Shown piece by piece: positions 2,978 to 32,800 of a DNA stretch of 64,000 nt (position 1 is its first letter; the number at the start of each line of letters is the position of its first letter). Both the position numbers and the translations under genes were made by a program. A model generated the notes under the pieces. That model searched no databases and had not been told where the DNA came from. It saw nothing but the letters and a program-made list of their open reading frames with translations. This stretch comes from Candidatus Omnitrophota bacterium (GTDB taxonomy: Bacteria; Omnitrophota; Gorgyraeia; Zapsychrales; Fredricksoniimonadaceae): contig JACQCF010000010.1 of assembly GCA_016201795.1 (NCBI GenBank), positions 79,095 to 143,094 on the forward strand, in the 5' to 3' direction.

Positions 2978-3446
2978 ACACAGTAATTCTCGTGTCATTG
3001 CGAGGAGTGAAACGACGAAGCAATCTTTTTCTATGGACAAAGAGATTGCTTCGTCGCCTTCGGCTCCTCGCAATGACAGGCGTGGAACTGTTCGCAATGA
3101 CACAAGAGGAGCCTCTGTCATTGAATACATCGTTTTGACAATTATTGTTTTGTCATCATTGTATGTCATGTACAATACGATCAGCAGGGGCATTTTCGGC
3201 AAGCATAAGGTGGCGGGAGATGCGTTTGCCTTCGGTCGTCAGTACGATGCCAGGCGCACCACCACCTGCCGTCAGGACTTTACTTATAGCCAGAACGGCA
3301 CTCCCATCAACGGGGTTTTTTACGACGAGGACTGTTATCAGACGCGTCTGATGCGGCCTTTAGTGAATGGCGGATGTACTCAGGGGGATTTTGCCTGTGA
3401 GGATGTGATTAAAAATTCTTGTATCAGTGATTATTGTAATCAATAA
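2940..3446 (+). CDS. TadE/TadG-like (Flp-type) pseudopilin; start uncertain (ATG 2940 overlaps upstream gene; alternative ATG 3033 lies inside the palindromic element)
   Basis: Translation contains RGASVIEYIVLTIIVLSSL, matching the Flp/TadE N-terminal processing/anchor motif (G-x-x-x-x-E-Y/F followed by a hydrophobic helix). Small Cys-containing C-terminal region. Confidence 0.5.
   Translation: MTGAQPMVTAHFKHSNSRVIARSETTKQSFSMDKEIASSPSAPRNDRRGTVRNDTRGASVIEYIVLTIIVLSSLYVMYNTISRGIFGKHKVAGDAFAFGRQYDARRTTTCRQDFTYSQNGTPINGVFYDEDCYQTRLMRPLVNGGCTQGDFACEDVIKNSCISDYCNQ
2994..3077. repeat. MITE/RPE-like compound palindromic element, copy A (3' of large secreted-protein gene, overlapping 5' leader of TadE-like gene)
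   Basis: GTCATTGCGAGG...CGACGAAGCAATCT...AGATTGCTTCGTCG...CCTCGCAATGAC: 12-bp outer and 14-bp inner inverted repeats. Shares core GTCATTGCGA/GAAGCAATCT/AGATTGCTTC/TCGCAATGAC with three other copies. Confidence 0.8.
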
Positions 3447-3457
3447 AACGGGGCTTT

Positions 3458-4315
3458 ATGATTGTACTTATCTTTTTTTTGATTTTCGTCTCTGTGGGGA
3501 TTTTAGTCTACACCCTCTGGCCGGTGGTGGCGACAAAAGCTCAGGCCATCAATGAAGGGCAGGCGCAGAAGATGGCCTTAAGGTCTGATCTTTACCTGCT
3601 GGAGGATGATCTGCAGAAGACCTATACCCTGGCGCTTTTGGCTCCGCTGGTTTTTGGCGTGGGGGCCTTTATTCTTTTTCCTTCCACCCTGCGTCTGGCG
3701 GGGCTCGTGGTCGGCGTGGTGTTAGGGATTGTTTTGCCGCGGCTGTATGTGAATGCCCTTATTGCCAAAAGAAAGTTGAAGTTTAATGACCAGCTCATTG
3801 ACGCGCTCATGATCATGTCCAGCTCTTTTCGCGGGGGGCTTAGTCTGGTGCAGTCTATTGAGGCGGTCATCGATGAAATGCCCAATCCCATCAAAAGAGA
3901 GTTTGGGGTCGTGCTCGGCGAAAATAAAATGGGGGTGGTGTTCGATGAGAGTCTCAACCGGCTCGCCAAGCGCATGCCTTCGGTGGCGCTCCAGCAGATG
4001 ATCACGGCCATTTTGCTGGCCCGCGAAACCGGCGGTAATTTGCCGGTGATCTTTTCCCGGATCATCAACACCATGCGCGAACGCAAAAAAATAGAACAGA
4101 GTTTAAAGATGCTGACCGTTCAGGGGAAAATTCAGGCGGTGGTCATGACCGGCCTTCCCATTCTTTTTGTCATGGGGGTTTCGGCGTCGAATCCGAGGTT
4201 TTTTGATATTATGTTTCGTATCCCCCAGGGCCAGCAGATGCTGATGGTCTGCGCGGTTCTGTGGATGGTGGGAGCGTTTTTTATATGGCAAATCAGCAAG
4301 TTTAAGGATTTTTAA
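3458..4315 (+). CDS. TadB-like type II secretion system F-domain membrane protein
   Basis: 285-aa polytopic membrane protein, N-terminal TM then a cytoplasmic domain then C-terminal TMs. Sits adjacent to a paralogous 301-aa gene, the typical tadB/tadC pair. Start is preceded by a GGGG Shine-Dalgarno-like stretch. Confidence 0.6.
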   Translation: MIVLIFFLIFVSVGILVYTLWPVVATKAQAINEGQAQKMALRSDLYLLEDDLQKTYTLALLAPLVFGVGAFILFPSTLRLAGLVVGVVLGIVLPRLYVNALIAKRKLKFNDQLIDALMIMSSSFRGGLSLVQSIEAVIDEMPNPIKREFGVVLGENKMGVVFDESLNRLAKRMPSVALQQMITAILLARETGGNLPVIFSRIINTMRERKKIEQSLKMLTVQGKIQAVVMTGLPILFVMGVSASNPRFFDIMFRIPQGQQMLMVCAVLWMVGAFFIWQISKFKDF

Positions 4316-4335
4316 TTATGTCATTGCGAAATGGT

Positions 4336-4429
4336 GTCATTGCGAAGAAGCGAAGCGACTGAAGCAATCTTTTGAGAATCTAATAGATTGCTTCGCTCAC
4401 TGCGTTCGCTCGCAATGACACGAAATCCG
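4336..4429. repeat. MITE/RPE-like compound palindromic element, copy B (intergenic tadB-like/tadC-like)
   Basis: Same core sequence. An extra partial left arm GTCATTGCGAA sits at 4320-4330. Confidence 0.8.
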
Positions 4430-4443
4430 TTTCGGAGAATAAT

Positions 4444-5349
4444 ATGCTCATCTTACCTTTGCTTTTAGTTTTTCTCTCCGTCTTTGCGCTGATCTTAGGA
4501 TTTACGCCTTTATCCATCCAGCCGAAGTTAAAATTGGATTTACCCGTGGCCGGCGGCGAGGGTTTTTCGGCGGGGGCGCCTGCTAAAAAACGGCCTCTGG
4601 ACTTTTTGTTTGGCGGGATACGCAAAATTGCGTTTTTTAACAAACCGTTCACCAACTCCGCTTTGGGCCAGAGGATTTTCAGAGACCTGATGTTAAGCCA
4701 GGTGAGACTTTCCGTTGAGGAATTCTTTTTAATCAAGCAGGCGCTGGCCCTGGGGCTGGTGTGGGTGGCCCTGAAATTCTATCCGGATAAAAATTTTATG
4801 GCTTTTGGTATTCTTATGAGCATGGCCGGCGGCTACTTGATTCCGGAGATTTGGCTGCACGCTAAGGTCCGTAAAATCAAAGCGGCGCTTTTAAAAGATC
4901 TGCCCGACACCGTGGATCTTTTGGGGCTTTGCGTCAATGCCGGATTGGATTTTATGATGGCGCTCAAATACGTGGTGGAAAAGTCCCCCCCGACGGTCAT
5001 TACCGAAGAATTGAAGCTGATGATGCAGGAAATTAACGTGGGCAAGCTGCGGCGGGATGCCCTGCGCGATTTGAGCCGCAAATACGAAATGCCGGATTTA
5101 TCCACTTTTACGCGCACCCTCATTCAGGCCGACCGCATGGGGACCTCGGTCTCGGAAGCGCTCAATATCCTTTCCGAAGATATGCGCGAGACGCGTTTTC
5201 GCCGCGGAGAAACCATGGCGCTCAAAGCTCCGCTGAAAATGCTGGTTCCTTTGCTGTTCTGCATCTTCCCGGTGGTAGCCCTTCTGGTGGCCGGGCCGGT
5301 ATTTTTGGATTTCTTCCACAATAATCCTTTGCGTAATTTAGGCCGGTAA
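4444..5349 (+). CDS. TadC-like type II secretion system F-domain membrane protein
   Basis: 301-aa paralogue of the upstream gene with the same topology. GGAG Shine-Dalgarno 8 nt upstream of ATG 4444. Confidence 0.6.
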   Translation: MLILPLLLVFLSVFALILGFTPLSIQPKLKLDLPVAGGEGFSAGAPAKKRPLDFLFGGIRKIAFFNKPFTNSALGQRIFRDLMLSQVRLSVEEFFLIKQALALGLVWVALKFYPDKNFMAFGILMSMAGGYLIPEIWLHAKVRKIKAALLKDLPDTVDLLGLCVNAGLDFMMALKYVVEKSPPTVITEELKLMMQEINVGKLRRDALRDLSRKYEMPDLSTFTRTLIQADRMGTSVSEALNILSEDMRETRFRRGETMALKAPLKMLVPLLFCIFPVVALLVAGPVFLDFFHNNPLRNLGR

Positions 5350-5354
5350 ACTCT
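5324..5354. repeat. 31-bp direct repeat, copy 1 (3' end of tadC-like coding sequence)
   Basis: ATCCTTTGCGTAATTTAGGCCGGTAAACTCT. Identical except for one base to 6646-6676. Confidence 0.85.
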
Positions 5355-5379
5355 TTTTGCGAAACCACAAAAACAATTC

Positions 5380-5407
5380 TTGACAATTTAAAGTAGTACT
5401 TTAAAAT
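5380..5407 (+). promoter_or_regulatory. sigma70-like promoter TTGACA-16-TAAAAT for AAA+ ATPase gene; predicted leaderless or near-leaderless transcript
   Basis: TTGACA at 5380-5385, TAAAAT at 5402-5407. The ATG lies at 5415, only 7 nt downstream of the -10, with no Shine-Dalgarno. Confidence 0.5.
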
Positions 5408-5414
5408 AGCAAAT

Positions 5415-6635
5415 ATGTACACCACGCGTTTGTTAGAAAAAACTTTGAAAGAAGCCGTGCAGTCTTTTCCGGTGGTTTTTATCGGCGGCCCGCGAAGAAG
5501 CGGCAAGACCACATTATCGCAAACATTCCTGAAAGGATACCGTTATGTCCTTTTGGACGAAATGGATGTGCGTTCGTTAGCCATAGAGGATCCGCGCGGC
5601 TTTCTGGAGAAATATCCGCCCCCGGTCATTATTGATGAAATCCAAAATGCGCCGCATCTTTTATCGCATATCAAAGCCCGTATGGAGGTCAATAAGAAGC
5701 CGGGGCAGTGGATTTTGACCGGTTCTCAACAATGGGCCTTGATGAAAGGTATCAGTGAAACATTGGCCGGGCGCATCGCTATTTTACACTTGTATCCTTT
5801 TTCCATAGAGGAAATTCAAAAGACCCGACGGGTTCATTTAAATGAGGCGGGCGGGTTTGTTAAGAGTTTGATGCAGGCTAAAAAAATACCGGACAAGATG
5901 ATCCCTCTTGGGCGCTGGATTCTACAAGGCGGGTACCCAGAAGTGGTCCTTAATAAGAAAGCGTCTCGCAAACTTTGGTTTTCCAGTTATTTGCAGACTT
6001 ATGTGGATAGGGATGTCCGCGGGCTTATCAAACAATCCAATCTTCATGATTTTGAGCGGTTTGTAAAACTTTTAGCGGCACGCACGGCGCAGGAGCTTAA
6101 TTGTTCCACGCTTTCGCGCGATATCGGCGTTTCCGTTCCTACCATAAAGTCTTGGATTACGCTTTTGGAAACGAGTGGACTCATCTTTCTTTTGATGCCT
6201 TATCATAGAAATTTCGGAAAAAGGATCATCAAAGCGCCCAAGTGTTATTTTATGGATACGGGGCTGGCGGCGTATCTCGTCGGCCTACAGGATGAGGAGC
6301 ACACCCTGCAAGGGCCTATGGCGGGCGCACTCTTCGAGACGGCCTGTGTTGCTCAATTTTATAAACGGTTTACCGCCTTGGTGGACCCTTGTTCACTTTA
6401 CTACTATCGCAGTATGGATGGGTTGGAAGTGGACCTTTTGATTGAAACCGGCAAAACGATTTATCCCATTGAAATGAAATTATCCTCGACCATTGATTAT
6501 GGACGAACAGCGTCTTTGATGAAGTGGCTGGAAATTTCTAAAATCAAAGATGGCCGGGGACTGATCATTTCCGCCTCCAGGGAATTGGGGTCGGTGGGTA
6601 AAAACGTAGCAAACTGCCACTATTCGCTGATTTAA
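5415..6635 (+). CDS. AAA+ ATPase, DUF4143/COG1373 family (ATP-binding protein)
   Basis: Walker A GGPRRSGKTTL and Walker B VIIDEIQ, with a C-terminal DUF4143-like region. Consensus promoter immediately upstream. Confidence 0.8.
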   Translation: MYTTRLLEKTLKEAVQSFPVVFIGGPRRSGKTTLSQTFLKGYRYVLLDEMDVRSLAIEDPRGFLEKYPPPVIIDEIQNAPHLLSHIKARMEVNKKPGQWILTGSQQWALMKGISETLAGRIAILHLYPFSIEEIQKTRRVHLNEAGGFVKSLMQAKKIPDKMIPLGRWILQGGYPEVVLNKKASRKLWFSSYLQTYVDRDVRGLIKQSNLHDFERFVKLLAARTAQELNCSTLSRDIGVSVPTIKSWITLLETSGLIFLLMPYHRNFGKRIIKAPKCYFMDTGLAAYLVGLQDEEHTLQGPMAGALFETACVAQFYKRFTALVDPCSLYYYRSMDGLEVDLLIETGKTIYPIEMKLSSTIDYGRTASLMKWLEISKIKDGRGLIISASRELGSVGKNVANCHYSLI

Positions 6636-6645
6636 ACCCGCCGCC

Positions 6646-6676
6646 ATCCTTTGCGTAATTTGGGCCGGTAAACTCT
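6646..6676. repeat. 31-bp direct repeat, copy 2 (downstream of AAA+ ATPase gene)
   Basis: ATCCTTTGCGTAATTTGGGCCGGTAAACTCT. With copy 1 it brackets the promoter plus ATPase gene (about 1.3 kb). Confidence 0.85.
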
Positions 6677-6682
6677 AACTAA

Positions 6683-6708
6683 CCCCGAACCTCGCAGGTT
6701 CGGAAAAT
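6683..6708. repeat. 26-bp stem-loop element, copy 1 (CCCCGAACCTCGCAGGTTCGGAAAAT)
   Basis: 7-bp stem CCGAACC/GGTTCGG with a 5-nt loop. Lies immediately after the stop codon (6710-6712) of the minus-strand regulator gene, between convergent genes. Confidence 0.7.
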
Positions 6709-6709
6709 T

Positions 6710-7681
6710 TTAAACCTCACTGATCACATCAAACCCTTTAAAGCTGCCGACAATGGCCAGCCCAACAATTTGCCCCCGGCAGAGGTTTTTGCGTTTGATT
6801 TGAGCGGCTGTTTCATTGAGCGTCGCGCCGGAGCCCACCGCATCATCAATAAGCAGGATATTGTTAAAAGGCGTTTTATCTTCCACGATCAGGGTTTGTT
6901 TGGCGTTATCGATACGGTCCTGGAGTTTATTAAGTGTCTTTTGGGCAATAAGGACATCCGTCTTAGCCTTAACAATGGACAGCAGCCGCTGGCGGATATG
7001 GAGCCGCTTTTTTAGCTCATTGATCAGCTGCACTTCGCGTTTGACCGTCGGTGGGATAAAGCCCGCCGCGTCAATATCAAACTGACTGATAATGGTTTTG
7101 ATGGGATGGTCGATGATTTCCACCAGCGCCGCAATCTGTTTTTTGTTCTGGCTGGATTTAGCCAGCAGCACCAGTTGTCCCAGTCTAGTTTTGCCAAAAC
7201 GTTCTATAGCATAAAAATCCAAATAGAAAAGCCTGTCCAATGCGATCTCTTTGAACGTGGAGCGCATTTTAGGCATGCCATCGATGAGTCCCTCTTTTTG
7301 ATATTGGCCATATTGGGCCATGGTTAACGCGTATTCTTTGGCTGTTTTGGCAGCGTCTAAATTTTGCTTGGCACACCAAGCCCTAAAACCGTTGACGCCG
7401 GTTTCTTGCTGTCCTAAAGGTGAAACATAATAAAAGTTTTTTTCAATCACATCCCTCGTTTGTTCATCAAGCAGGAAGATCTGCGGCTGTTCTTTGGGAT
7501 CAGTCAGGGTGTAAAAAACTTTTGGTGGGCGGCCCAGTTTTTGAATTAAGCCTTTTTCACAAAGAACTTTAAGTTGTTTGAAAACAGCCCGGGGGCCTAT
7601 GTTCAAAAGATTATAAAGATCCTTTGGACTGGTCTGGGGGTTTTGAGCAATATATTCTAAGATTTTTTGAGATGTATTCAT
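6710..7681 (-). CDS. PurR-like regulator: N-terminal winged-HTH fused to a phosphoribosyltransferase (PRPP-binding) domain
   Basis: N-terminal HTH-like segment (ILEYIAQNPQTSPKDLYNLLNIGPRAVFKQLKVLCEKGLI). C-terminal PRTase PRPP-binding motif LLIDDAVGSGATL. Perfect palindrome at its start codon and a consensus sigma70-like promoter upstream. Confidence 0.6.
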   Translation of the reverse strand: MNTSQKILEYIAQNPQTSPKDLYNLLNIGPRAVFKQLKVLCEKGLIQKLGRPPKVFYTLTDPKEQPQIFLLDEQTRDVIEKNFYYVSPLGQQETGVNGFRAWCAKQNLDAAKTAKEYALTMAQYGQYQKEGLIDGMPKMRSTFKEIALDRLFYLDFYAIERFGKTRLGQLVLLAKSSQNKKQIAALVEIIDHPIKTIISQFDIDAAGFIPPTVKREVQLINELKKRLHIRQRLLSIVKAKTDVLIAQKTLNKLQDRIDNAKQTLIVEDKTPFNNILLIDDAVGSGATLNETAAQIKRKNLCRGQIVGLAIVGSFKGFDVISEV

Positions 7682-7711
7682 AGTTCATAGTTCATAGTGA
7701 ACTATGAACTA
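7677..7711. promoter_or_regulatory. Perfect 14-bp inverted repeat (TAGTTCATAGTTCA-TAG-TGAACTATGAACTA), candidate operator overlapping the start codon of the PurR-like gene
   Basis: 7681-7694 is the exact reverse complement of 7698-7711. Extended by TTCA at 7677-7680, giving TTCATAG x3. Spans the ATG at 7679-7681 and lies just downstream of the -10. Confidence 0.6.
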
Positions 7712-7712
7712 T

Positions 7713-7743: not shown

Positions 7744-7769
7744 CCCCGAACCTCGCAGGTTCGGAAAAT
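7744..7769. repeat. 26-bp stem-loop element, copy 2 (identical sequence)
   Basis: Lies immediately after the stop codon (7771-7773) of the minus-strand toxin gene, in the same position relative to the stop as copy 1. Confidence 0.7.
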
Positions 7770-7770
7770 C

Positions 7771-8028
7771 TTAAGGATTTTGTAATAAATCGTGGGTGCC
7801 GATTTTTCTTAAGAAAGCCGTATCGCCAATTTTTTGGTAGGTGATGCGGTAATTGATGTTGACGCGCAACTCCCAAACATCTTTATAACCTGTCATCTTT
7901 TTATGCTCAAGGGAAGGATGGAAGGGATTGTCTCTAAGAAGGGCTAGAGATTTTTTAGCTTGGGTTTGTACTTCACTGGGTAATTTTTGATATAGTTTGA
8001 GAAATTGTTTGGATGTTTCAATGATCAA
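7771..8028 (-). CDS. RelE/ParE-family type II toxin (mRNA interferase)
   Basis: 85-aa protein with RelE/ParE-like signature regions (SKQFLKLYQKLP...NPFHPSL...WELRVNINYRITYQ...IGTHD). TTG start overlaps the upstream antitoxin gene by 11 nt. Confidence 0.65.
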   Translation of the reverse strand: MIIETSKQFLKLYQKLPSEVQTQAKKSLALLRDNPFHPSLEHKKMTGYKDVWELRVNINYRITYQKIGDTAFLRKIGTHDLLQNP

Positions 8029-8311
8029 AATCGTAGTCCTTTTTACCGTCTAAAATATCAAATAACTCCTCAAGATTTTTAGTTTTTGTGACCCGTCCGG
8101 CTTTAATGTCTTCCTCCGCTTCTTTTTCGCCTTTTTGCCATTCTGGCGTGAAGAAATAAGCTTGATCTTTGGGAATGGAGACATGAGGTTTTAAATAAAT
8201 GCCGTTGTGAACAATTTGCACATCCAAATAATCATTTTTGTGTAAATGAAGATTCTTGACCACTTCTTTTGGAATAGCAATTTGGTAATTAGCGCCAAGT
8301 TTTCTAAGCAT
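8018..8311 (-). CDS. AbrB/MazE/SpoVT-family antitoxin (start reassigned to ATG 8311; track ORF extends to TTG 8335)
   Basis: N-terminus MLRKLGANYQIAIPKEVVKNL fits the SpoVT/AbrB swapped-hairpin fold motif. AGGAGG lies 9 nt upstream of ATG 8311. The TTG at 8335 overlaps the predicted -10 box, so it is unlikely to be the start. Confidence 0.6.
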   Translation of the reverse strand: MLRKLGANYQIAIPKEVVKNLHLHKNDYLDVQIVHNGIYLKPHVSIPKDQAYFFTPEWQKGEKEAEEDIKAGRVTKTKNLEELFDILDGKKDYDFDH

Positions 8312-8334
8312 GTTGATCATCCTCCTTTGATTCA

Positions 8335-8362
8335 ACTATATCATAAAATATGGAAATGTCAA
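8335..8362 (-). promoter_or_regulatory. Promoter for antitoxin-toxin operon (TTGACA-16-TATAGT on minus strand)
   Basis: Minus-strand TTGACA corresponds to + strand 8357-8362, and TATAGT to + strand 8335-8340. Followed by AAGGAGG and ATG 8311. Confidence 0.5.
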
Positions 8363-8545
8363 ATTCATATTTTAGTATTTTAGTATATTAACAGTATGGC
8401 GATATGCCATAAAGCGCTATGCCTCAAGCGGGATATCCAAAATTTATGATATCTGTCTATATTATAATTTCCATTATGGAAATATATGTATGTAAGTTTC
8501 CAGTCTGGAAATAAGTTGAATATTCATGATTTTCTCCAAATGAAT

Positions 8546-8660
8546 CCCCTCCCCCTGTGTGGGGAGGGTAAGGGAGGGGGCATAAAAGCGATAATCTCCG
8601 TCGATCCCCCTCCCCTAACCCCTCCCACCAAGACCCGCCGTAGGCGGGTCAAGGGAGGGG
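8546..8660. promoter_or_regulatory. GC-rich nested-palindrome island with G-quadruplex-type G-tract (+ strand) and C-tract (G4 on - strand) motifs, in an AT-rich intergenic region upstream of the giant gene
   Basis: GGGGAGGGTAAGGGAGGGGG at 8561-8580, four G-tracts with loops of 1-3 nt. Near-complementary CCCCCTCCCCTAACCCCTCCC at 8605-8625. Hairpin GACCCGCC-GTAG-GCGGGTC at 8631-8649. Outer arms CCCCTCCCCC (8546-8555) and AAGGGAGGGG (8651-8660). Confidence 0.5.
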
Positions 8661-8776
8661 AATAGTGTAGAAAAACGCACCTTTAAAAGAATTTCGAAAA
8701 AATATTCCAACAGCGACGTAACTTATTGAAAATAAACAATATAAATATTTAAAAGTATTTGAGAAAATTTGCTAAC

Positions 8777-8850: not shown

Positions 8851-11800
8851 ATGAATAAAAACGAAGAATTCAATCAAAAAACCCCCCAGGACGATGGTGG
8901 TTTTGCTTTTATTCCAGAGAATATAGATAAAAGCAAAAAATCAGATTTCCCCTCGTTGCAGCCTCCAGAAAGCATTTCCCCAGAGCAGGTTACGTCAATT
9001 AAACCGGAAATTCCTTTAGCCGACAAAAGGCCGTTTGTGAGCAATTTCAAACAATGGATCAGGACGGTCGCCATCGTGATTCTGGCGGTGTTTGTGCCGG
9101 ATCAGGTGAGCTGGGCATTTGGCTATAACCCAACGGTGCTGTATAAAAACCTGCCTATTGCCCAGGCGCCGTTGACTGGGGTAGGGGCGATCAATGATCA
9201 CCCCCAACAGGCAAGCGCCCAGGTTGCCGGTTCGGTGGAATACTTGCTCAAGCAGATCCAGGATAAAGACCGGCTGAGGGTACAATTAAATTTGGATAAT
9301 CAGCCGGTCAGTCAATGGTCAATGGTCAATGGTCAAAATATTCTACCATCCACTATTCACCCTAAACCATTAACCGTTGACACCCGCACCACGTTTGATC
9401 AAAACAACATTGCCAAAATTACCCAGTGGCTCTCTGATCCCAATCTCAATGTTCTTAACTGCGGGGTGTATGCCCTGCAGGAAGTGCTGGCCAAGAAAGG
9501 TATCAACCGCTCCCTGGAAGAAATTTCCGTGCTGACGGTCTCCACGGATTTGCTGGCCAATATCATCAAGGTGGGCGAGCCCAAACTCAAGACCACGTTG
9601 TTTGCCATCAGCAAAGTCGGCTCCGCCCTGGGGCTTAATTACCAGGCGCTTAAAGTCGAGGCCAAAGAGGAGCTCAATTTACCCGCGCCTTTTATCGCCC
9701 ATTTAAACAGCGAGCATTTTGTGACGGTCAAAAAGGTCAGCGGGCACAAAGTCTTTATCGATGATCTTGGCCATCCGCAGATTGTTGAGCGCGCCGAGTT
9801 TGAGAAAAATTTAGACGGGTTTGTGTATACAGAAATTCCGTCAAGTGTCATTGCGAGCGAACACAGTGAGCGAAGCAATCTATTAGATTCTCATCAAAAG
9901 ATTGCTTCAGTCGCTACGCTCCTTCGCAATGACACAGCCATACAATACGAAATCGTCCCCGAAGCCATGCAAGCCTTTGTCTGGGGCGACAAGTGGCGCG
10001 ACAGGTCGCAGAACCTGCCGGGGTTGTTTAACGCCGAACAGTTTGCCATTACCCAACTCACCGCAATCGTGGGAGCCTTTTGCCCGGTATGCGGCCTGGC
10101 CATGACCGTTGGTTATCAAGCTGCCAACGGCGCATCCATGGAGCAAATTGGAATGACCATTGGTATCGCCGTGGCGATGATGGCCTTATCAGCAGCGGTC
10201 GGCGCGGCTAGCAACAGCGGCGGGTCTACTACAGATGCCGGAGGGACAACTGGCACTGGAACAACAGGCACCGAGGTCACGGGAACAACAGGCACCGAGG
10301 TCACGGGAACAACAGGTACGGAAGTCACCGCTGGAACAGGCACACCAGTCGGTACAGGAGTTGGCACTGCAACATCTACAACTCCCACCACTTTCGGGGG
10401 CCGGTTTTGGGGCAATTTTACAGGCAACTTTACTAAACCGGTTTTAAGCGTCGGAAATCTTACCATGAGCTTCGTCGGCATGGCCGCCAGCAGATTGGCG
10501 GGGGACATAGCTACGATTTGCGTGCTGGAGGGAGCCTGCGATCAGACCACCGGATTTATTTTAAGCACCGCGCTTTCGATTGGGTTAACCGTTGGGGTCG
10601 CGTCTGTCGCTAATTTCGGGAAAACTGCTCCTGTGGATGCCAGCAAAGATACACTGGCTAATGGCGGCACAGAATTTGACGCTCAGTACGTTCATGATGC
10701 TGTTGCCGGCGGCGCGAGCCCAGACGATGCCACCTTTTGGGCCTGGTTTGATGGAGCATCAGAAAAGCAAGCTATGTTAATTGGGACGGAAGTCGCCAAA
10801 TTTTCAGGAAGTTTCTCAAATTTCGCAACAGCTTTTGCCAAAGGTCTTGCCAAAGGCCTTGTTTTAGGCGCGGTCAAAGGCATTGTGTCATTGGAAGTCA
10901 CTCAGGCCGTCAACAGCGCCATCTGCCCTCATCAAAATAAATGCAGTGAAAGCGATAAAATTTTGTCGCAGACCCTGGGCACGCTTCTGTCTTCCGTGGC
11001 CTCCGATGTGGCGGTTGCCACGGTGAGGTATATCGGCGATAACATTTCTAAGGGAGCAGCCGGTTTCGGCAAAATGCCGGGAACCCAACCAGGAAAAACA
11101 GATGCTTTTATTGCTGCGGAAAATAAAGTCAAAGATATCAGCAATACGCAGGAGTATGAAACTGCAATGGAAAAGGCTGGGGATGATTGGTTCCGTCAAA
11201 GATACGATAAAGCCATTAAAAATGGCGAAGATCTTAGCAAAATAGATTTTGAGGGGGGCGTTCAACAAGCGGAACAACAGTGGAAGGCTTCCACCAATCA
11301 AGACAACTTTTTTAAGGGTGAACTCGGTTACATGGCAAACAATAACGGCAGCGAAGGCGAGTGGCATCCAGCCAACTTCTTTAAATATACGGGGGTGATT
11401 TTAAAAGCCGACCTTCCCTTTATCGCCGGTCAGCTCACCGGCGGGGCCCTGCGCCTGGCCGCGGCCCAGATGGGCATTAAAGCTGACAGCCAATTCTCCC
11501 AAGGTTTTGCCGCAGCCGGTAACCTCCTGAGCAGTGCAGCTATTCAGTATGGGTTTGACAAAACTTTCAGAGAGAGGCCTTTGCTTGACTTTGATAATGG
11601 AATGAAAGGGTTCAGCTCCAGCATCATAGGAGGTATGGTCATGCTGGGCGCTACCCAGGCGGTCATGTCCATGGGATTAATAGCTTTAGAAGGCGCCATC
11701 GTGGGCAAGGCCCCGGGCAGAAATGCTTCGGCCAGACAACTGCGCGATTATGAAAACAATTTGGCCGTATTTCGAACCACGTTTTTGATCGACACCAGTT

Positions 11801-29800: not shown

Positions 29801-32800
29801 GGGGACCTAGTACTTCAGGAACTTCTGGACCCCCGACAAAAACATTCGGGGGTGACAAAGTTTTGCCTGTGCAATTCCCTGAGCCAGAGCTTCAACCTGC
29901 GCCTGCTATTCGGCCGGTCCCCCTACCCGTGTCATTGCGAGCGAATGAAATGAGCGAAGCAATCTCTTATCCTAATAAAAAGATTGCTTCAGTCGCTTCG
30001 CTCCTTCGCAATGACACCAATGTGGTGGTTATTAATTTCAATCGCATCATGATGAATCCTCAGGCCACGGCCAGGGGGCCAGTAACGAAAACTACAGATG
30101 CCTATAGCCCTGTCCGAGAAGCCCAGCAGATAGCCGATTCTGCTGACGAGGCCATGACGACCATAACTTTAAACAATGGCGTAACAATAGAAACACCTGT
30201 GAAGGAAGCTTCGGAAATAGAAAACCTCATGGGCACGAAAAGAGACCGTCCCGTTGTTATCATGACCACAGAATCTGCCCAGGGTAGTTACTTATTACAA
30301 AATTTTGGAATTACAAAGGGATGGGAATTCTCGCACACCTCGTTGGCTGACATTGAAGAAATTTTGGGGACGAACAATGTTACTGAAAAGATACGTCAGT
30401 TAGTAGCAGAAGAAAAAGTTCGTCGTCAGCAAGAGGATTATACGCCGCGCCAGATCCGTGTGCTCGACTGGGGGGCTGGTTCAGGCACAGCTCTGGAGGA
30501 TTTAGTTAAAGTGTTGGGCGAAGACAGGGAGTATGTTGAACTGATTGCTTATGGCAACATGGTTTATTCTAATCAATCGAACGCAGCCGATAGAACCATT
30601 TTTGATGTGAAAGAAAATTTGGGGGCTTATATTGAACCAGGCAGTATCGACCTTGTCTTTAGTCATTTAGGGCTTTTCCACGCGGGGATTCGGTACATTA
30701 ATGATGATCTCATGGCGCTGGTCCGCGCGGGAGGAACAGTTGTTTTCAATACTGATTCTCCTCAAGCCGTGAAGACGGTATTCCCTGAATCAATGGATGT
30801 AGCGGGGTTAAAAGTCAATTATGTGATTGCTGCTCTGATAAAGAACTTACGGACAAGTTCTGTGGTGGTGTTAAGGCCAGCCTCAGATGCCAGTCCGGTG
30901 ATGACGATGGAGAATGGACAGCCATTGCCGCTGGTCCAGGCACGGGAATTATTAGAACACATGAACAAATGGTTTAAACGTACACCTGTGATGGATGGTG
31001 AACGTGACCGTACCATTAGAACACGGCTTGAAGAAGCCGTCCAATCGAGCCAGCTTAATACAGCCTCTCCTGTTGCCGCATCGTATCGTCGGCTTAAGGA
31101 AGGAGAAATAGCTCAATCCATTGCCCAGTTCTTCAGTGATAAGAACATAAGCGATAAAGCTGATCAGATGAGTCTCGTTAATACTGCTATTGCTTATTTG
31201 CATGCTGGGCAGTGGCAGCCGCATGACGCGGCCATGACGGCAGCGGCGGGAGCAGGACAAGCGGCGGCAGCATCGACCGCGGATATTCTGCAACAGCGTT
31301 TGGGCATTCTCAAGCAGGTCGCCTCTTATGTACAAAAGCATTTTGCCAAACGCCAGGGCAACCCCACGGATGTTCTTTTCAATGATGTGATGTTTGTTGA
31401 TCAGCTTAAGATCGCCGAGAGGATTATCAAAGAACGAATAGCGGTGGCTCCCAATGCTGCAGGTAAATCTCTGGCTGAATTTTTGGCTGCCTTGTCTGTG
31501 GCCCTGGCTGGCCAGCACGCTACATTATTGGGCCGTAACGAAGGTGACATCAGCAAATTCTTTGACGATGTAGACCTGCCGCCTGGCTTTATCGCCACCT
31601 ACCAGCAAATGGCCCAAGAAATCAGTAGCGCCTTTGGCCAAAACATCCGCCTGGTTAACATGGATGAATTAATTGAAGAATATCAGATGGCTCTTGCCAA
31701 AGGAGATGTCCAACAGGCCAAATTACTAGAAGAACAGATTAAGCAAGCTCTTGACGATACCAGCGCCATCAAATTCTTCTCATTGACCAGCCGCGGCCAT
31801 CTGCCGCAGCGTATCAAACACGATCCTAAACTCCTGGCTGCCCTGCAGTCTTCCAAATTAAACGGCATAACGATCCTGGATGAGGCCGATGACCTCTTGT
31901 TGCTTGAGGTAACCTATATCGCTTCTGAGCCGGTGAACGTGGCCAAGAGCGACATAGCCAAAAACATGGTCAAGAAGATCAAGGAACTCTCCAAGCTTAT
32001 TAATATTGAAGGTATCAAGCCAGGCAAAGGCAAGGCTATCAAGAGAGTTGCCACCATTAAAGAATTTGAAGAGGCGCAGCAGAAGAAAGAATTGGCCGTC
32101 TGGTTTAGCGGTCAGATCGGCGTCAATGGTTTGGCCGGTACGCCGGATATGCTGGTGACCAAGGCGGTGTTTGAGCATTTGCACGATTATCCGGCTTATT
32201 TTGTGGAAAGCGTCATTCGCGGCATCATGGAACCGATCAATACAAGACTGGTCCCTGCAGAAAAAGACGGTAAACTCCAGCTGGTGTCCCGCAGCCGCAT
32301 CGGTGAACCTCAGAAGGATTTGATTTTCAGCGAATTCCCTTATCTGATCGTCCAGACCTTGAAATATAACCAGCAGAACTCCGGCCGTAAGATTGTCATT
32401 GATGATTTGCAAGTGACCAGCGCCAGCGTTTACGAAAATCCGATCCAAGAAATCCTTCAAGGCCCCATCGGCGGCGCGACCGCTACCAAGAGCACAGCCC
32501 AGCAAATCATTGAGGCCAAGACAGGTTTGCGCATTGAGCCCGACGATATTATCGGTGGCGAAAGCAATTTGATTGAACAAATGACCTGGTCTGGCCAGCG
32601 TCAAGTGGTGGTTGAACCTGTCGATTCCGTACTCAAACGCGCTTTAGAGCTAGTGCGACAAGCCAAGAGCAATCATCACGGCTCCTTGGTGTTTGCTGAT
32701 AACTATGAAACTCTTCAAGCTACGGCCAAGCTGTTGCGCCAGGAATTCGGCAACGACCAGGTGGATGTTATTGATGGAAGCGAGTCCGATATAAGCAAAT

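Follow-up and report, generated by a model that had tools for sequence, protein, structure and literature searches.

A self-promoted AAA+ ATPase cassette between copies of a tadC gene end in Candidatus Omnitrophota: probable insertion with target duplication and no recombinase of its own

Within a 64,000-nt stretch from a metagenome-assembled genome (MAG) of Candidatus Omnitrophota (contig JACQCF010000010.1, positions 79,095 to 143,094; called here the window, which is the part of this genome that the comparison covered), a gene for an AAA+ ATPase with a DUF4143 domain follows a tadC-like pilus gene and lies between two copies of a 31-nt direct repeat. We consider it probable (roughly 0.7) that this gene and its promoter are a horizontally acquired defence-type cassette, put directly after tadC with no element-encoded recombinase and with duplication of a piece of the target. 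Because the insertion would have duplicated that piece, the right repeat copy would be an orphaned relic of the tadC 3' end. The mechanism is most likely one-sided homologous capture, akin to homology-facilitated illegitimate recombination (HFIR). The locus is built as follows.

4444-5349, forward strand: TadC-like (T2SSF) pilus gene, the target and anchor (Pfam T2SSF, E=9e-17; homologues named TadC); its 3' end is the left repeat copy.
5324-5354, forward strand: R1a, the left repeat copy, consisting of the final 26 nt of tadC with the stop codon (...NNPLRNLGR*) and 5 nt more.
5355-5378, forward strand: A-rich spacer of 24 nt, junction or filler that differs between loci; homology of cassettes 90-95% identical ends at about -42 from the ATG.
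5380-5407, forward strand: the cassette's own promoter (TTGACA, 16-nt spacer, TAAAAT), an 11/12 match to a sigma-70-like consensus.
5415-6635, forward strand: gene for the AAA_14 + DUF4143 protein of 406 aa (Pfam E=1e-26 and 2e-45; PDC-S01 E=2e-105).
6636-6645, forward strand: junction or filler of 10 nt, ACCCGCCGCC, separating the ATPase stop codon from R1b.
6646-6676, forward strand: R1b, the right repeat copy, a putative orphaned relic of the tadC 3' end; it differs from R1a at one synonymous position.

An earlier note on this DNA had described two 31-bp repeats differing by one base, the left of which forms the last codons of the tadC-like gene, and this description holds at the exact coordinates. 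The left copy (5324-5354, ATCCTTTGCGTAATTTAGGCCGGTAAACTCT) and the right copy (6646-6676, ATCCTTTGCGTAATTTGGGCCGGTAAACTCT) are identical at 30 of 31 positions, and 26 nt of the left one belong to the open reading frame (ORF) 4444-5349, the remaining 5 nt following it. The sole mismatch (5340 A / 6662 G) is synonymous in the tadC frame, TTA and TTG both encoding leucine. The C-terminus FLDFFHNNPL(R/K/H)NLG(R/H)* is common to TadC relatives of 72-85% identity, and R1a is therefore the native gene end and R1b a coding fragment out of context. When up to three mismatches were allowed, the 31-mer had just these two matches in the 64-kb window and none in 100 dinucleotide-preserving shuffles; the window's 31-mers also had no match in ~100 related loci. 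Absent from the remaining window and from those loci, the sequence is thus not a dispersed or terminator-type repeat, which the note had proposed to check. The bracketing of promoter and ATPase gene was confirmed as well, with only the 24-nt and 10-nt spacers besides, and so was the claimed lack of an integrase or transposase inside: the insert between the copies (5355-6645, 1291 nt) holds a single ORF, that of the AAA_14 + DUF4143 protein, and no transposase, integrase or other mobility gene was found among the insert's ORFs (ORF list and Pfam). Contigs L001 and L013, obtained with a different assembler (Logan, run SRR12113409), cross both junctions. Because the two copies are imperfect and differ internally, an artefact of k-mer assembly is disfavoured.

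The cassette appears to be equipped for its own expression. A palindrome, TTTAAAGT-AGT-ACTTTAAA, occupies 5387-5405, between and overlapping both promoter hexamers, and to judge from this arrangement the gene is probably autoregulated. The ATG starts 7 nt past the -10 box, so the ATPase mRNA would probably be leaderless. At the other end, no attC-like imperfect palindrome was found in the 10-nt gap from stop codon to repeat. Homologues of the ATPase form ~90 protein clusters with 74-84% identity, nearly all of 406 aa. The comparison drew on 24 genome loci and 49 metagenome loci; 46 distinct loci were tested for brackets. A unit of ~1.26 kb, from the -35 box to the stop codon, occurs in unrelated contexts across the ~60 related loci. 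The promoter motif, the palindrome and the spacing to the ATG are kept in all of them, including relatives of 50% protein identity, and the flanks beyond about -42 and the stop codon are unrelated. In pairs of cassettes with 90-95% DNA identity, homology drops abruptly at -42 to -48 and at +3 to +8. Since homology ends there, the spreading unit is the promoter plus the ORF, with ragged flanks and no terminal repeats. Some subsets of loci share 40-80 nt more upstream, or a downstream PrimPol-helicase gene. The latter, a conserved gene after the ATPase cassette in L014 (7357-9819) and also in L017, L038, L044, L046 and L047, encodes in L014 820 aa with a CRISPR-associated-type PrimPol domain and an SF2 helicase; ATPase and PrimPol-helicase may form a two-gene system.

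The bracketing recurs in other loci, around homologous cassettes and with repeats of different length and origin:

Window: repeat of 31 nt, 30/31 identical; duplicated, the 3' end of tadC.
L056: repeat of 39 nt, identity weak.
L027: repeat of 53 nt, 52/53 identical; duplicated, the 3' region of a convergent Maf-like gene.
L032: repeat of 57 nt, perfect (57/57); duplicated, the final 57 nt, to the stop codon, of an upstream gene annotated PilO.
L052: repeat of 123 nt, ~3 mismatches; duplicated, intergenic DNA.
L022: repeat of 142 nt, ~92% identical; duplicated, 5 nt and the first 137 nt of a DUF1016 gene.
L067: repeat of ~310 nt in several segments with small gaps; duplicated, intergenic DNA.
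L031: repeat of ~660 nt, ~97% identical over the first 401 nt; duplicated, the 3' two-thirds of an RluA-like gene (orphan copy).

Under a fixed criterion, outside of which L031 falls, local direct repeats bracket the ATPase cassette in 7 of the 46 distinct loci, compared with 0.67% of control positions in the same loci (binomial p = 3e-8). Across loci, no shared ends and no common motif were seen in the repeats or junctions. The repeat-rich loci L019/L049, L046, L014 and L043 were excluded as cases, their flanking repeats being dispersed elements resembling repetitive extragenic palindromes (REP). Two further features were seen at L031: on the right side of the ATPase, the orphan fragment of RluA (5160-6100) holds an insertion of 233 nt resembling REP or miniature inverted-repeat transposable elements (MITE), which the intact copy lacks, and a second, divergent DUF4143 ATPase of 377 aa lies just downstream (6183-7316). 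In two unrelated loci, L022 (6242-7240) and L100 (7404-8477), a DUF1016_N (YhcG-like nuclease) gene has had its 5' end duplicated, the cargo being the ATPase in the first and a Fic gene in the second; genes of this kind may be a preferred landing site.

Repeat-bracketed cassettes are not confined to the ATPase itself. Four were found with the ATPase adjoining, and two at places without it:

Window: cargo, a gene with a winged helix-turn-helix (wHTH) and a phosphoribosyltransferase (PRTase) domain, adjoining the ATPase; repeat of 31 nt.
L029: cargo, an AbiE-like pair, adjoining the ATPase; repeat of 39 nt.
L061: cargo, a small toxin-antitoxin pair, adjoining the ATPase; repeat of 51 nt, perfect.
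L063: cargo, two toxin-antitoxin pairs, adjoining the ATPase; repeat of 33 nt, perfect.
L100: cargo, a Fic gene; repeat of 86 nt; no ATPase in the 20-kb stretch examined.
L103/L104: cargo, an HTH/Fic pair; perfect repeat of 24 nt, extending at ~70% identity to ~70 nt; no ATPase in the 20-kb stretch examined (L103).

At L063 (3722-5345) the repeat corresponds to part of a PIN-toxin gene, internal to it and towards its 3' end; the two toxin-antitoxin pairs are downstream of the orphan copy, and the intact PIN-toxin gene lies between the repeat copies. The last two cases come from a control of 86 kb chosen via the Fic 'mobile mystery protein B', which yielded these two distinct bracketed cases in stretches without the ATPase; another 86 kb, of TadC-chosen loci, contained no repeat-bracketed cassettes. 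Because Fic-chosen loci without the ATPase show such cassettes, the footprint is one of general accessory-cassette insertion in these bacteria. The same cases weaken the idea of the ATPase as driver of insertion, since none lies in the stretch examined; in the favoured reading the ATPase is cargo and not the engine.

The manner in which the duplicated piece arose is best approached through the differences between the repeat copies, which in several pairs suggest, by their sequence, diverged alleles and not decayed duplicates. The orphan in L103 retains the reading frame and the stop codon at ~70% identity. The orphan in L100 retains the ATG and has an in-frame 2-codon indel beside 86 nt with one mismatch. 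Between the copies in L022, four differences are synonymous and one is non-synonymous, and clustered changes have in addition put stop codons into the orphan; in L027 the two copies run on into alternative short C-terminal tails. As the copies sometimes resemble diverged alleles, homologous recombination on one side combined with an illegitimate join is suggested. Incoming DNA would have come from a related donor in which the cassette already stood beside the same conserved gene. It would have recombined homologously on the tadC side, and its other end would have been joined illegitimately at a point a little before the recipient's tadC end; the recipient's last 26 coding bases of tadC would thereby have been retained as a second copy. 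In the window, L032, L022 and L100, the repeat edge nearest the cassette is 0-5 nt from a stop or start codon; repeat edges at gene ends are expected in this HFIR-like view, because the repeat would mark the end of donor-recipient homology. A passage in one report (PMC3784515) describes partial duplications as a product of natural transformation.

An empty site was sought in related genomes, none of which proved sufficiently close. As the earlier note had proposed to check, the gene order of relatives was compared, and the nearest TadC relatives (72-85% aa identity) have no ATPase after tadC. In these relatives tadC directly precedes a gene of 162-166 aa, to which L005 adds sugar-modification genes and then a giant gene. 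Synteny is lost past tadC, and a tblastn search of the window with the relatives' downstream genes gave no match. Exact-protein look-ups placed TadC and the PRTase gene on same-sample contigs only, and the ATPase itself was not on record.

Several observations weigh against insertion by one-sided homologous capture and have to be set beside the evidence given above. Neither the exact-protein look-ups nor the comparison of TadC relatives revealed an empty-site allele for the window, and all 19 contigs of the L022 locus, reached via its flanking Fic gene, are filled and likewise include no empty-site allele; the case for insertion is therefore built on comparative context. About 85% of the ATPase loci carry no repeat. 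The window's own 31 nt, with one mismatch, fit in-situ duplication and allelic origin alike, and the differences in L031 (6 synonymous, 5 non-synonymous) are ambiguous. The orphan copy in L063 is on the 'wrong' side for a simple model with a one-sided anchor, and it fits no simple insertion model. Finally, experimental HFIR is reported to yield mainly deletions, and a duplication requires a second chromosome copy or a replication fork.

The alternative that survives best, though we regard it as unlikely, is in-situ target duplication. It assumes that two single-strand breaks, 31 nt apart here and tens to hundreds of nt apart elsewhere, are filled in after a linear cassette has been ligated. 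The AAA+/PD-(D/E)xK protein that the cassette encodes may have introduced the breaks, or else a different nuclease that cuts at variable distances. For restriction enzymes, Kobayashi's group suggested double-strand breakage by the nuclease, and amplification via the repeats (PMC2853133, PMC2993543). In its favour, the repeats of the youngest cases (57/57 in L032, 52/53 in L027, 30/31 in the window) are tight and near-identical, the cargo has an intact nuclease motif, other bracketed cassettes cluster beside ATPase genes, and all published cases carry nucleases. However, bracketing was also found in L100 and L103, with no ATPase in the stretch examined, and around toxin-antitoxin cargo free of nucleases; staggers of 300-660 nt are hard to produce by paired nicks; and the copies at several loci differ in the way alleles do, with repeat edges that coincide with gene ends.

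Two further explanations are improbable to about the same degree. The first is Campbell-type integration, in which a small circle bearing the cassette and a short patch identical to the tadC end recombines through RecA and so duplicates the patch, the repeats later permitting excision or amplification. RecA-dependent exchange has a minimum of ~25 nt of homology. The repeats observed, of 24-660 nt, are of about this length or longer, their variable length follows naturally from such a mechanism, and the arrangement of L063 fits reintegration at a scar; moreover, restriction-modification (R-M) units flanked by long repeats are reported to amplify. Yet the cassette must have been joined to target DNA earlier, so that spread is explained and origin is not, and neither a circular form nor a tandem amplification occurs in any contig examined. 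The second is that the PDC-S01 gene is an autonomous one-gene mobile element, whose product would bind the palindrome or the target, translocate, cut at variable distances and so bring about its own insertion. Were this the case, long variable duplications would follow, and the gene's surroundings would become a landing pad for further defence and toxin-antitoxin cassettes. A class of transposase-free selfish elements would then account for the 25-year-old puzzle of 'long target duplication'.

Site-specific recombination, with the 31-mer as the attachment (att) core of an integrase encoded elsewhere and the cassette as a non-autonomous passenger, is very improbable. In its favour, att cores typically have such a length, and integrases typically insert at the 3' ends of genes. 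On the other hand, the repeats around near-identical cassettes (90-95% nt identity) are unrelated, differ widely in length and have no motif in common, the window ORFs tested before the giant gene include no integrase, there is no attC-like structure, and the cassette has its own promoter. Of the two forms of insertion that the earlier note had left side by side, the one that duplicates its target at the tadC 3' end is thus supported and the site-specific one is not, as homologous cassettes are bracketed by unrelated repeats. Because repeat sequence and length vary between loci, an att core and a classical transposase are both excluded; for a DNA transposon or insertion sequence, moreover, there is no transposase and there are no conserved termini, and the repeats range from 31 to ~660 nt where a short duplication of fixed length would be expected. 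Integron cassettes are excluded because attC is lacking and own promoters are present. That no insertion took place at all, and the repeat arose by chance, as a duplicated functional signal or as an error of assembly, is hardly credible: 31 is a common k-mer size of assemblers and a second 31-nt pair adjoins, but none of the 100 shuffles reproduced the match, the mismatch between the copies is internal, the junctions were recovered by a second assembler too, the right copy is a piece of coding sequence away from its gene, and the pattern is repeated in other assemblies.

The cargo protein belongs to a family that has been associated with defence. It matches the PADLOC candidate defence family PDC-S01 over its full length (residues 2-398, E=2e-105), and its Pfam scores, 93.5 bits for AAA_14 (cut-off 27) and 155.1 bits for DUF4143 (cut-off 28.1), exceed the curated thresholds. 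Across 24 homologues there is no variation in G30/K31/T32 of Walker A, in D74 of Walker B or in the motif D340...E353-x-K355. DUF4143 has been placed in the PD-(D/E)XK nuclease superfamily (PMC3424549), and the protein is predicted from these motifs and folds to be an ORC/STAND-like ATPase with a wHTH and a PD-(D/E)xK nuclease domain. In the AlphaFold (AF2) model (mean predicted local distance difference test, pLDDT, 77.5), the closest Foldseek matches were the archaeal Walker ATPases 2qen and 2fna, subunits of the origin recognition complex (ORC) and STAND NTPases including Avs4, with weak scores and a TM of ~0.4; a sequence search of the PDB returned no relative. Relatives of the ATPase on plasmids and in a few metagenomic phage records are distant ones only, and a search of IMG/VR found none. 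The likeness to PDC-S01/COG1373 (AAA_14-DUF4143) proteins is thus one of a full-length match to the hidden Markov model of a family enriched near defence genes. The family has the status of candidate defence only: a literature search found no functional study and no experimental anti-phage paper for any member, so that function has been demonstrated for none.

Beyond the right repeat copy, further accessory genes follow:

6683-6713, unstranded: R2a, first copy of a second 31-nt direct repeat (30/31), comprising the hairpin CCGAACCTCGCAGGTTCGG and the stop codon of the PRTase gene, 6 nt beyond R1b.
6710-7681, reverse strand: wHTH + phosphoribosyltransferase-like gene, the second cassette, bracketed by R2a and R2b (Pfam HTH_24 and a weak Pribosyltran match).
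7744-7774, unstranded: R2b, second copy of the hairpin repeat, overlapping the stop codon of the ParE-like gene.
7771-8335, reverse strand: ParE-like toxin (7771-8028) and MazE-like antitoxin (8018-8335) with their own promoter (8362-8335) and low GC (0.33-0.38).

Both genes that flank the R2 copies terminate within the repeat. The equal length of the R1 and R2 pairs is probably a coincidence, because R2 is an exact hairpin segment of 26 nt extended past a mismatch into two stop codons. The gene after R2a, which the earlier note had likened to PurR, indeed has the wHTH + PRTase architecture; its PADLOC matches are to the C-terminal part of PsyrT (1e-13) and to retron PRTase/ShosT-like proteins. 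Its promoter at 7741-7713 matches the consensus at 11 of 12 positions, and a perfect 15-nt inverted repeat, ATAGTTCATAGTTCA TAG TGAACTATGAACTAT, at 7680-7712, between this promoter and the start codon, probably serves as operator for the wHTH domain that the gene itself encodes. Low-GC DNA (0.33-0.38) separates the toxin-antitoxin pair from the giant gene and carries G-rich/C-rich inverted repeats (GGGGAGGGTAAGGGAGGGGG / CCCCCTCCCCTAACCCCTCC, 8540-8675). No tRNA or known RNA target was found in the window. The conserved tad operon and the giant gene thus enclose a variable spot, which has taken up at least three self-promoted cassettes, namely the ATPase, the wHTH-PRTase gene and the ParE/MazE pair.

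The borders of this spot have features of their own. The giant gene is one uninterrupted open frame on the forward strand from 8845 to the window end (64000), with >18,385 codons, and L005 has a gene of 17,991 aa at the equivalent place after the tad operon. Three tandem copies of a 24-nt unit, CACGGGAACAACAGGCACCGAGGT, lie within the giant frame at 10254-10325. The tad operon has REP-like palindromes (TGTCATTGCGA...TCGCAATGACA, ~40-nt arms) in its intergenic DNA (3013-3105 and 4314-4421), and two more copies lie within the giant frame (9845-9935 and 29929-30017), which they leave unbroken. Upstream of the TadB/TadC-like genes is an ORF of 904 aa (263-2977) with no Pfam match; relatives carry ORFs of 1230-1314 aa at its position, likewise without Pfam matches.

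Little is understood of the way in which defence genes spread when no transposase or integrase moves them, and long target duplication, described between 2000 and 2010, was never explained. The same footprint is now found in a little-studied phylum and with other cargo: a candidate defence ATPase-nuclease, a PRTase effector and toxin-antitoxin pairs. As the footprint of one 1.26-kb cassette occurs at no fewer than seven or eight independent places, it provides a natural series in which in-situ staggered breaks and one-sided homologous capture can be set against each other. It also offers a signature of recently acquired defence genes in metagenome-assembled genomes, namely an orphan gene-end fragment past a self-promoted gene.

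Three known systems can be compared with the window. Integron gene cassettes resemble it in that one spot accumulates a stack of single-gene cassettes with accessory, defence or toxin-antitoxin functions; in contrast to integrons, no attC, attI or intI was seen here, the cassettes have their own promoters and both orientations, and the repeats are variable and derived from the target. Closer to the proposed mechanism are HFIR and the displacement arrays of effector-immunity loci of the type VI secretion system (T6SS), Rhs loci and contact-dependent growth inhibition (CDI) loci (PMC5361080 and its references 41, 42 and 47). There too, modules enter beside a conserved anchor gene without a recombinase, orphaned fragments of the earlier gene end are left downstream, and repeated events build arrays. 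The orphan in those arrays is a whole variable 3' region with its immunity gene, whereas here it is 26 coding bases.

The third system is insertion with long target duplication, which was described for R-M genes in Helicobacter (Nobusato et al. 2000, Gene 259:99) and later reported for all R-M types (Furuta et al. 2010, PMC2853133) and for a lone mcrA gene (PMC2993543), in several phyla. The published repeats are >30 to ~420 bp long, occur nowhere else in the genome and in many cases overlap a flanking gene at its 3' end, and mobility genes are lacking; most cases come from naturally competent species, and the mechanism is unexplained (PMC2853133, PMC2993543). Set against the screen of Furuta 2010, the window's repeat of 31 nt is just longer than the >30 bp borderline, its insert stays below 20 kb and has no mobile gene, and the repeat is non-dispersed, with 2 copies in 64 kb and none in the ~100 related loci. 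The screen's requirement for an R and an M gene is where the two diverge, the cargo here having no methyltransferase. The likeness lies in a compact nuclease-encoding defence unit without transposase or integrase, and in repeats >30 bp that are specific to the locus and placed at gene 3' ends. The differences lie in the cargo, which is a PDC-S01 AAA+/PD-(D/E)xK protein with PRTase and toxin-antitoxin cassettes alongside and not an R-M system; in the Omnitrophota host, where insertion is read from context and not by comparison with an empty site; and in the recurrence of one conserved 1.26-kb cassette in many independent events, with repeat copies that are partly like diverged alleles. The window cassette is probably a product of the same process as long target duplication, with a new cargo, in a new phylum and with unusually many independent events.

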